A DNA stretch of 64,000 nt, taken from assembly GCF_055900595.2 (NCBI RefSeq), contig NZ_CM148325.1. The stretch is one strand, 5' to 3'. The stretch's first letter is position 1. Each line of letters starts with the position of its first letter. This document shows positions 7,629 to 10,149 of this stretch, piece after piece. The notes under the pieces are model-generated. The model saw only the letters and a program-made list of their open reading frames with translations. It was not told where the DNA came from and ran no database searches. A program made the position numbers and the translations under genes.

Positions 7629-8639
7629 ATGAAGGCTGCAGTTGTTACGAAGGATCATCATGTTGACGTTACGGATAAAACACTGCGCTCACTGAAACAT
7701 GGCGAAGCCCTGCTGAAAATGGAGTGTTGTGGCGTATGTCATACCGATCTTCATGTTAAGAATGGCGATTTTGGTGATAAAACCGGCGTAATTCTGGGAC
7801 ACGAAGGTATTGGTGTGGTGGCAGAAGTTGGCCCTGGTGTAACTTCATTAAAACCAGGCGATCGTGCCAGTGTGGCGTGGTTTTACGAAGGTTGCGGTCA
7901 TTGCGAATACTGTAACAGCGGCAACGAAACGCTGTGCCGTTCAGTAAAAAATGCCGGATACAGCGTTGATGGCGGTATGGCGGAAGAGTGCATCGTGGTC
8001 GCCGATTACGCAGTTAAAGTGCCGGATGGCCTGGACTCCGCGGCGGCTAGCAGCATTACCTGCGCGGGTGTCACCACCTACAAAGCAGTAAAACTGTCAA
8101 AAATTCGTCCAGGACAGTGGATTGCTATCTACGGTCTTGGCGGTCTGGGCAACCTCGCCCTGCAATATGCGAAAAATGTCTTTAATGCCAAAGTGATCGC
8201 CATTGATGTCAATGATGAGCAGTTGAAACTGGCAACCGAAATGGGTGCAGATTTAGCGATTAACTCACGCACCGAAGACGCCGCCAAAATTGTGCAGGAG
8301 AAAACTGGTGGCGCTCACGCTGCGGTGGTAACAGCGGTAGCTAAAGCTGCGTTTAACTCGGCAGTTGATGCTGTCCGTGCTGGCGGTCGTGTTGTGGCAG
8401 TCGGTCTGCCGCCGGAGTCTATGAGCCTGGATATCCCACGGCTGGTGCTGGATGGTATTGAAGTGGTCGGTTCGCTGGTTGGCACGCGCCAGGATCTCAC
8501 CGAAGCCTTCCAGTTTGCCGCCGAAGGCAAAGTGGTGCCGAAAGTCGCCCTGCGTCCGTTAGCGGACATCAACACCATCTTTACTGAGATGGAAGAAGGC
8601 AAAATCCGTGGCCGTATGGTGATTGATTTCCGCCGCTAA
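7629..8639 (+). CDS. adhP: zinc-dependent alcohol dehydrogenase (propanol-preferring)
   Basis: 336-aa product from [11 protein letters not shown], preceded by AGGAGG. Contains the zinc-ADH signature GHEGIGVV and Rossmann motif GLGGLG. Confidence 0.9.
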
Positions 8640-8648
8640 GAGGCCTTT

Positions 8649-8684
8649 GCTGCGACTGCCATGTTCGGGTCGCAGCCTGTTTTG
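8649..8684 (+). terminator. rho-independent terminator downstream of adhP
   Basis: GCTGCGAC ... GTCGCAGC stem followed by CTGTTTTG. Confidence 0.6.
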
Positions 8685-8824
8685 CGAGACGCTTTCCGCA
8701 ATTTCACTCTTCTTCTTTTCCTCCCCCATCTTTCCCCTCACAATTCGCGAAAACGTAGCGAAATTTGTTGCGCTGCACGGAACAATAGTGATAGTGTTCC
8801 TTTCGAGGGAACAAGGATGAAGAG

Positions 8825-9103
8825 ATGATAATGAATTTCAGACACAAGGGATTGCGTGACTTGTTTCTTCTCGGCAAAACCTCCGGCGTTATACCGACGC
8901 AAATCAAACGATTACGCCACCGACTCGCTGTGATTGATGCAGCAAGCTGTCTTGCTGATCTCGATATGCCCGGTTACCGACTACACCCGTTAAGCGGCGA
9001 TCGTGATGGAATTTGGGCGATATCTGTCTCGGGCAACTGGCGAATCACATTTGAATTCGTCAATGGCGATGCATACATACTGGATTACGAGGACTATCAC
9101 TGA
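8825..9103 (+). CDS. HigB/RelE-family toxin-like protein (plasmid-maintenance-killer type)
   Basis: 92-aa basic ORF directly upstream of, and overlapping by 1 nt with, an XRE-type HTH gene. Toxin-first order is typical of higBA modules. Start may be the ATG at 8825 or at 8831. Family assignment is from size, charge and context only. Confidence 0.6.
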
Positions 9104-9387
9104 TGAAAATGGCCAATCATCCCCGCCCGGGGGACATTATTCAGGAATCACTGGACGAGCTGAACGTCAGCCTGCGCGAGTTTGCCAGAGCAATGGAAAT
9201 TGCGCCCTCAACGGCAAGCCGATTGCTGACCGGAAAAGCCGCGTTGACGCCAGAAATGGCGATTAAACTTTCCGTGGTGATCGGCAGTTCGCCGCAAATG
9301 TGGCTGAATCTACAAAACGCCTGGAGTCTGGCAGAGGCAGAAAAAACGGTAGATGTGTCGCGACTACGCCGTCTGGTTACGCAATAA
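9103..9387 (+). CDS. yddM: HigA-type HTH (XRE family) antitoxin-like DNA-binding protein
   Basis: 94-aa ORF with an HTH segment ([27 protein letters not shown]). Located between adhP and fdnI, as yddM is in K-12. Confidence 0.75.
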
Positions 9388-9419
9388 ATAAATATCCTCC
9401 GGCATAGCCGGAGGTTTTT

Positions 9420-10095
9420 CAAATGCGCCTGTAAGGCTCTGTTACCAGCCGCGCCCTAACAGGCGCATACGATCTGACATTTGCATTCAACTTCGTTACT
9501 TACGGCCCGTAAACGGGCTGCCCGGATATGGAATCGATAACTGCTCCCCCATTTTATCCTCTTCAAGCTGGTGCTTTATGTAGTCCTGTATCTTCGCCGT
9601 GTTCTTACCCACCGTATCGACATAGTACCCTCGGCACCAGAACTCCCTGTTTCTGTATTTGAATTTCAAATCCCCAAACTGCTCGTAAAGCATCAGACTG
9701 CTTTTCCCTTTCAGATATCCCATAAAGCCGGATACGCTCATTTTGGGTGGGATTTCCACAAGCATATGGATATGATCTGCGCAGCACTCTGCTTCCAGAA
9801 TCCGTACGCTTTTCCACTCACACAGCTTTCTCAAAATACTGCCTATCGCCCTACGCTTCTCTCCGTAAAACGCCAGTCTTCGGTATTTCGGCGCAAAAAC
9901 TATGTGATATTTACAGTTCCAGCGGGTGTGCGCTAAGCTCTTTTCGTCCCCCATTGGGACCCCCTTTTGATTTCTTGTTTGACACTTGCAGTTGCCAGAC
10001 CGCAAGGTGTTTTAACAAATCAAAAGGGGTTTTAATAACTGGCTCAAAGCTGAAAGCTTTCCGGAACCCCCAGCCTAGCTGGGGGTTTTCTGTGC
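9420..10095 (-). mobile_element. IS200 insertion sequence (IS200/IS605 family); boundaries approximate
   Basis: Contains an IS200-type tnpA. The upstream end carries a GC hairpin (CCCCCAGCCTAGCTGGGGG at 10066-10085) and a long imperfect palindrome at 9961-10030 that would occlude the tnpA RBS, as described for IS200. Exact termini could not be fixed by eye. Confidence 0.7.
9496..9954 (-). CDS. tnpA: IS200 transposase TnpA (Y1/HUH transposase)
   Basis: 152-aa product MGDEKSLAHTRWNCKYHIVFAPKYRR ... with the HUH motif (HIHML) and catalytic Tyr region typical of IS200 TnpA. The track ORF extends 17 codons upstream. Confidence 0.9.
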   Translation of the reverse strand: MGDEKSLAHTRWNCKYHIVFAPKYRRLAFYGEKRRAIGSILRKLCEWKSVRILEAECCADHIHMLVEIPPKMSVSGFMGYLKGKSSLMLYEQFGDLKFKYRNREFWCRGYYVDTVGKNTAKIQDYIKHQLEEDKMGEQLSIPYPGSPFTGRK

Positions 10096-10097
10096 AC

Positions 10098-10131
10098 AAA
10101 AAAATGGCGCTTTTTACAGCGCCATTTTCAG
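10098..10131 (-). terminator. hairpin terminator downstream of fdnI (potentially bidirectional)
   Basis: AAAATGGCGC ... GCGCCATTTT perfect inverted repeat flanked by A/T runs, immediately 3-prime of the fdnI stop. Confidence 0.6.
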
Positions 10132-10149
10132 CTTAAAGTTCAAAAGAGA

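Follow-up and report, generated by a model that had tools for sequence, protein, structure and literature searches.

The founding and best-characterised HigB-HigA system is that of the Proteus vulgaris plasmid Rts1, a toxin-first pair with a 92-residue toxin, an antitoxin carrying an N-terminal helix-turn-helix (HTH) domain and a hig promoter with two operators, O1 and O2 (PMC12266136). Mutation of any one of His54, Asp90, Tyr91 or His92 abolishes the toxicity of Rts1 HigB (Schureck et al., PMC5027501). The GraT-GraA pair of Pseudomonas putida (PDB 6F8S) belongs to the same HigB-like fold family and has a HigA-type antitoxin; GraT carries a disordered extension at its N terminus and functions as a derepressor (PMC12266136). 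Escherichia coli K-12 encodes a pair, YgjN-YgjM, which is also named HigBA and is likewise a toxin-first combination of a RelE-superfamily protein and an HTH protein, but differs from the pair described here in its locus and its subfamily.

The nearest described systems are the HigB-HigA pairs of CFT073 and other B2 strains (2ICP/2ICT; TA20 of NRG857c; TADB TA027334), which represent the same locus as the present pair, between adhP and fdnI. The structure of the CFT073 HigA antitoxin (2ICP/2ICT) is said, in a later paper, to have been described by Arbing et al. in 2010. The 2ICP/2ICT structure has been ascribed to HigA of E. coli CFT073, with the HTH located N-terminally in CFT073 HigA and Rts1 HigA and C-terminally in K-12 HigA (PMC6987408). 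A 2020 survey of adherent-invasive E. coli (AIEC) genomes lists the pair in NRG857c as TA20, parE-2/higA-2, with genes of 279 and 285 nucleotides that share a base, and records TA20 as common to CFT073, with the antitoxin only in K-12 and HS (PMC7232551). A 2024 review quotes the TADB entry TA027334 (higBA) for the pair and states that such pairs 'remain to be characterized' (PMC11205521). The higB-yddM pair is thus already known from RefSeq annotation, from TADB and from surveys of AIEC and uropathogenic (UPEC) genomes, and since the module already figures in annotations and catalogues of B2 strains, CFT073 and NRG857c among them, its recognition here is no discovery. The novelty value of the present analysis is accordingly small, and its use lies in an explanation of the K-12 state and in a clear population picture of toxin loss. 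The higBA knockout of Norton and Mulvey (2012) in CFT073 was considered as a possible earlier study of this locus and rejected: neither of its two 40-nucleotide homology arms was matched in the window at up to 3 mismatches, and the authors must therefore have targeted another higBA locus, of the K-12 type.

The window, that is, the whole stretch of 64,000 nucleotides analysed here, carries the pair at positions 8825-9387. This segment is very probably a type II toxin-antitoxin operon of the higBA type, intact and located in the chromosome, that encodes a HigB toxin and the antitoxin YddM/HigA and acts in the manner of the Rts1 system. The features of the locus are as follows.

8649-8676, plus strand: terminator-like hairpin of adhP, GCTGCGAC-N12-GTCGCAGC, between adhP and the toxin-antitoxin operon (inverted repeat, found in all aligned alleles)
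8766-8784, plus strand: putative operator O1, TGTTGC-gctgcac-GGAACA (inverted repeat and allele comparison)
8795-8813, plus strand: putative operator O2, TGTTCC-tttcgag-GGAACA (inverted repeat and allele comparison)
8825-9103, plus strand: higB-like toxin gene, 92 aa, ATG start (open reading frame listing, homology and RefSeq WP_032303016.1)
9103-9387, plus strand: yddM, the higA antitoxin gene, 94 aa with an N-terminal XRE helix-turn-helix, ATG start (open reading frame listing, TIGR02607 and PDB match)
9389-10097, minus strand: IS200, about 709 bp, between the yddM stop and the native terminator (transposase profile and empty-site alignment)
10106-10129, plus strand: native yddM/fdnI intergenic terminator, hairpin GGCGCTTTTTACAGCGCC followed by ATTTTC (empty-site alignment)

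The toxin reading frame is intact and belongs to the HigB family of the RelE superfamily. Its ATG is preceded at a spacing of 7 nucleotides by a Shine-Dalgarno sequence, AAGGA (8813-8817), and its sole Pfam match is PF05015, HigB-like_toxin (E 3.9e-18; residues 4-92 of the query against positions 2-91 of the 91-position model). A phmmer search against all PDB sequences retrieved Proteus vulgaris HigB, the 'killer protein' of Rts1, over the full length (4MCT, 4PX8, 4YPB and others; E 6e-32 to 3e-30), the best match being chain 4MCT_B at E 6e-32. In BLASTP with the 92-aa Rts1 HigB, 92 of 92 positions were aligned without a gap and 52 were identical (57%), and the two proteins share H54, N71, R73, D90, Y91 and H92; all four residues essential in Rts1 HigB (H54, D90, Y91 and H92) are thereby kept in the window toxin at the same positions. 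Because the identity to solved HigB structures is gap-free at this level, the question of the fold can be answered from homology, and the toxin is expected to adopt the RelE/microbial RNase fold. The NCBIfam model for RelE/StbE, TIGR02385, gave only a partial match of 18 bits, below its cutoff of 27.9; the toxin is therefore a HigB and not a RelE proper, a member of the superfamily that lies outside the RelE/StbE subfamily. The family of the protein, its co-linear alignment with a toxin already characterised, its retention of the essential residues and the anatomy of the operon are established directly here.

Among other related systems, GraT-GraA is much more distant than Rts1 (toxin E 1.7e-7, antitoxin E 1.8e-11); the window toxin runs co-linearly with Rts1 HigB starting at residue 1. 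No chain of K-12 HigB or HigA appeared among the PDB sequence matches of the toxin or of YddM. The Rts1 copy is plasmid-borne, whereas the window copy is chromosomal. No plasmid or phage copy with more than 60% identity was found in the collections searched, barring three E. coli entries classed as plasmids, 4.9 Mb, 385 kb and 252 kb in length; these look chromosomal, and plasmid-borne near-identical copies of the toxin were rejected. The nearest mobile relatives, at about 57-59% identity, are the Rts1-type HigBs of plasmids of Providencia, Salmonella, Citrobacter and Pantoea and of phage GER2.

The antitoxin gene is equally well placed in its family. YddM scores 93.7 bits against the equivalog model TIGR02607 (HigA) of NCBIfam, for which the curated cutoff is 47.7, and is 100% identical over its 94 residues to the PDB entries 2ICP/2ICT, named 'antitoxin HigA'. 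It is 41% identical to Rts1 HigA, with which it shares the N-terminal HTH, and the window protein is 100% identical to YddM of K-12. Toxin and antitoxin genes meet in the sequence CAC TGA TG AAA, in which the toxin stop TGA (9101-9103) and the ATG of yddM (9103-9105) share one base (TGATG). An earlier note on this DNA had recognised, from its letters and reading frames, a toxin-first pair of 92 and 94 residues with a one-nucleotide overlap and had taken it for a higBA-type module; the reading frames at 8825-9103 and 9103-9387 and their shared base bear out the first claim, and the profile, BLASTP and PDB matches given above uphold the second. Its description of the 92-aa product as basic does not hold, the predicted pI being 6.9 with 11 Lys and Arg residues against 11 Asp and Glu residues.

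Annotation by PGAP in strain EC42405 places the boundaries of both coding sequences at the same positions; RefSeq gives the names 'type II toxin-antitoxin system RelE/ParE family toxin' for the first gene and 'yddM: HigA family addiction module antitoxin' for the second; the toxin protein is 100% identical to RefSeq WP_032303016.1 (strain EC42405). The CFT073/B2 system resembles the window pair in its antitoxin, which is 100% identical to 2ICP, and in the 279- and 285-nucleotide genes with a one-nucleotide overlap, as in NRG857c. It differs in the toxin allele, since the window toxin shows 3 conservative residue differences from that of the B2 strain 536 and represents a rarer allele (I27, S41, L46), unlike the B2 systems, that is found in identical form in strains EC42405 and Z0117EC0005, and in the presence of IS200 directly after yddM in the window. 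The segment 8640-9387 is 100% identical to strain Z0117EC0005.

Upstream of the toxin gene, the two inverted repeats listed above as putative O1 and O2 are spaced 29 bp apart, and O2 abuts the AAGGA ribosome-binding site. Their layout resembles the O1/O2 arrangement of the Rts1 hig promoter, and YddM is presumed to bind there. The degenerate motif TGTTSC-N7-GSAACA occurs in the 64 kb only at these two sites, but this rarity gives no independent support, because the motif was built from O1 and O2 themselves. The independent support comes from the comparison of alleles. The toxin-less K-12, O157 and H15 alleles preserve both the half-sites and the distance of 29 bp, and their 7-nucleotide spacers are entirely different (O1 spacers gctgcac, gtaggaa and ttcctac; O2 spacers tttcgag, cagtgaa and tgatgaa). 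In the toxin-bearing alleles the observed differences internal to the repeats are confined to the spacers. A consensus scan of 8600-10200 found no sigma-70 promoter, and the promoter is therefore placed only by inference, at or between O1 and O2. In a genomic SELEX study with the K-12 sigma-70 holoenzyme, a promoter signal was assigned to yddM (PMC3946193).

RNase activity of the toxin, its neutralisation by YddM and operator binding are taken by analogy with the characterised system, and the following course of events is proposed. As in Rts1 HigB-HigA, higB and yddM would share a transcript, and the TGATG overlap would couple their translation. YddM, presumably a dimer like Rts1 HigA, would bind HigB, hold it away from the ribosome, and repress the operon at the inverted repeats at 8766-8784 and 8795-8813. 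On depletion of YddM, free HigB would enter the ribosomal A site and cut mRNA at A-rich codons by means of H54, D90, Y91 and H92, and this cleavage would lead to arrest of translation and growth.

The occurrence of the two genes was surveyed in 5426 complete E. coli genomes. RefSeq annotates the pair in 1328 of them, always between adhP and fdnI. The antitoxin gene is nearly universal (yddM present in 5412 genomes), whereas toxin DNA gave any match in 1330, the toxin region being of full length in 1328 and partial in the remaining 2 records. An exact match to the frameshift allele of the ST131 strain 5506 accounts for 545 of the 1328, so that an open toxin frame is left in about 783 genomes (14%), which is an upper bound. 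The K-12-type toxin-less allele is carried by about 4080 genomes (about 75%), a group that takes in typical O157:H7 and variants whose adhP terminator carries SNPs. An apparent third allele class of about 1200 genomes, which matched yddM and not the adhP terminator, was rejected as a separate class; these genomes carry the K-12-type allele, in which SNPs break the megablast word.

Three forms of toxin loss were distinguished. In K-12 MG1655 the spacer between adhP and yddM measures 145 bp, against 463 bp in the window, and there is no toxin gene; the shorter spacer means that K-12 has lost the ribosome-binding site and the start codon together with almost the whole toxin gene. In the ST131 strain 5506 (L002, positions 1501-1778) one G is missing in codon 33, corresponding to position 8922 of the window; the gene is annotated as 'frameshifted', yddM is intact, and the toxin is a pseudogene in this strain. 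The figure of 545 complete genomes for this frameshift is a count of exact matches to an 81-nucleotide sequence. In the O157:H7 strain TR01 (L001, positions 1402-1546) a rare independent deletion has spared operator O1 together with the final 47 bp of the toxin gene; TR01 was tried as the typical O157 state and rejected, as a partial match is seen in only 2 of the 1330 records and typical O157:H7 carries the K-12-type allele. Given the K-12-type deletion, the codon-33 frameshift and the TR01 deletion, the toxin has been inactivated in at least three separate ways, and it is dispensable and repeatedly lost. The earlier note did not count the pair among the classical K-12 toxin-antitoxin systems, and the state of the locus explains this: K-12 has no toxin gene here and keeps yddM alone. 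The pair seems unfamiliar when seen from K-12 only because that strain, like about 75% of E. coli, has lost the toxin and retained the antidote. The K-12 yddM gene (b1477) is thus an orphan higA, with the same two operator-like repeats upstream.

Sequence variation indicates that both genes are maintained by selection. Six sampled intact alleles of the toxin differ at 16 codons, 13 of which vary only synonymously and the rest by conservative replacements (I27V, S41C and L46I), with pN/pS of about 0.07-0.44; where it is intact, the toxin is therefore under purifying selection in the sampled alleles, as judged from codon comparison. In yddM, 22 of the 24 codons that vary among eleven alleles do so synonymously. 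One and the same YddM protein is encoded in the window and in K-12, ST131, 536, H15 and TR01, where the alleles carry 9-16 synonymous differences from that of the window (pS 0.13-0.23), and it is altered only in one typical O157:H7 allele (E80A and T93A). By the same comparison YddM is under strong purifying selection with or without the toxin, even as an orphan. Direct results of the analysis likewise include the exact match of the antitoxin to a HigA of solved structure, the purifying selection that acts on toxin and antitoxin alike, and the polymorphism by which the toxin is present in some E. coli and absent from others. As a separate observation, the window yddM shows 12 synonymous differences from the B2 alleles (536 and ST131), while its toxin gene differs from that of 536 at only 5 sites; this disparity suggests a recombination breakpoint inside the operon.

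The frequency of toxin loss raises the alternative that the toxin frame is an inactive relic which happens to be open and that the locus works solely through YddM as a stand-alone transcription factor. The deletion of the toxin in about 75% of the genomes and its frameshift in 545 more accord with such a view, as does the selection on YddM, which is equally strong where the toxin is missing (the window and K-12 genes differ at 11 synonymous sites and at no non-synonymous site); in K-12 the protein necessarily stands alone, and it is among the candidate transcription factors studied there by ChIP-exo (PMC6237786). Moreover, no toxicity or RNase experiment on this E. coli HigB was found in the accessible literature. 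A relic would nevertheless hardly be of full length, co-linear with the active Rts1 HigB and in possession of its four catalytic residues, and the six diverged intact alleles, with synonymous change at 13 of 16 variable codons and three conservative replacements, are unlike those of a neutral relic. A relic is consequently regarded as improbable, and the reading of the segment as an intact HigB-YddM operon is preferred.

The naming of the toxin leaves room for another proposal, that of a ParE-type poison of DNA gyrase in place of an mRNA endonuclease, for the NRG857c orthologue is listed in the ParE_toxin superfamily as 'ParE-2', together with HigA-2 (PMC7232551), and the PGAP name cites a RelE/ParE family; both are labels at the level of the superfamily. 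No ParE-specific match to the toxin was obtained in Pfam, in NCBIfam or among PDB chains at E up to 1, all the PDB matches being HigB or GraT and PF05015 the only Pfam match, the HigB catalytic residues H54, D90, Y91 and H92 are present, and TADB, as quoted in the 2024 review (PMC11205521), names the pair higBA. A gyrase poison is hence very improbable. Still less credible, and of negligible probability, is the idea that the frame ahead of yddM is open by chance and is no gene. The lack of a promoter in the consensus scan and the absence of the sequence from many E. coli genomes could be cited in its favour, but it is refuted by the strong full-length homology to a characterised family and by the bias of substitutions towards synonymous sites, since with 13 of 16 variable codons synonymous the frame cannot be fortuitous; the correctly spaced Shine-Dalgarno sequence and the annotation of the same coding sequence in RefSeq also speak against it.

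Within the preferred reading of a HigB-YddM operon, a further suggestion concerns the antitoxin, namely that YddM does not serve solely as antidote in a module undergoing decay but has a selected, toxin-independent role. This is suggested by the identity of the protein in the face of synonymous differences and by the preservation of the operator half-sites in toxin-less alleles, and we advance it tentatively, as a possibility that we consider rather doubtful. Such a role may consist in standing immunity (anti-addiction) against HigB toxins that arrive from plasmids, phages or recombination with toxin-bearing E. coli; alternatively, YddM may regulate other genes. If a toxin-independent role were true, the presence and absence of the toxin would represent a balanced state rather than simple decay.

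The pair was also said in the earlier note to lie beside an IS200 insertion, and comparison with empty sites places the start of the element 1-2 bp past the yddM stop. The bounds given above are approximate and derive from alignment with the empty sites of ST131, EC42405 and O157. The transposase matches NF033573 at 143.9 bits on the minus strand; tnpA extends over 9496-9954 (152 aa) according to RefSeq, and the longest open reading frame reaches 10005. The element is downstream of both reading frames and interrupts neither gene, and it has pushed the native terminator about 710 bp away from yddM. Near its end, a hairpin, CCTCCGGCATAGCCGGAGG (9396-9414), is followed by TTTTT on the plus strand and scores as a terminator on both strands; it replaces the native terminator, and the insertion probably leaves the toxin-antitoxin module undisturbed. 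Each of the seven genomes with a match to the complete 8640-9500 query has an IS200 at roughly this position, and the element is annotated in GF60; IS200C occurs at about the same site in genomes with different toxin-antitoxin alleles, for example GF60. In Rfam, the 5' UTR of tnpA (9964-10087, minus strand) scores 146 bits against the family STnc490, which is an Hfq-binding sRNA with a gathering score of 56, and the insertion therefore puts an sRNA-like element beside the operon.

Some observations were made elsewhere in the window. A narY-like gene for the beta subunit of nitrate reductase Z (25493-27036) appears split: an open reading frame of 405 aa aligns with the narH profile (492 positions) from 1 to 402 before it meets a stop, and the remaining 106 aa lie in another frame (26716-27036), directly ahead of narW. 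The gene is probably a frameshift pseudogene. The region 16113-19948, between yddG and narU, contains, besides two leucine-rich-repeat proteins (about 416-419 aa), an intact OmpC-family porin of 366 aa (496.5 bits, cutoff 484); K-12 presumably has only the degraded genes yddL, yddK and yddJ between yddG and narU. A SECIS_3 selenocysteine insertion element (14100-14158, minus strand, 84 bits) is located in the gene for the alpha subunit of formate dehydrogenase-N, as expected for fdnG.
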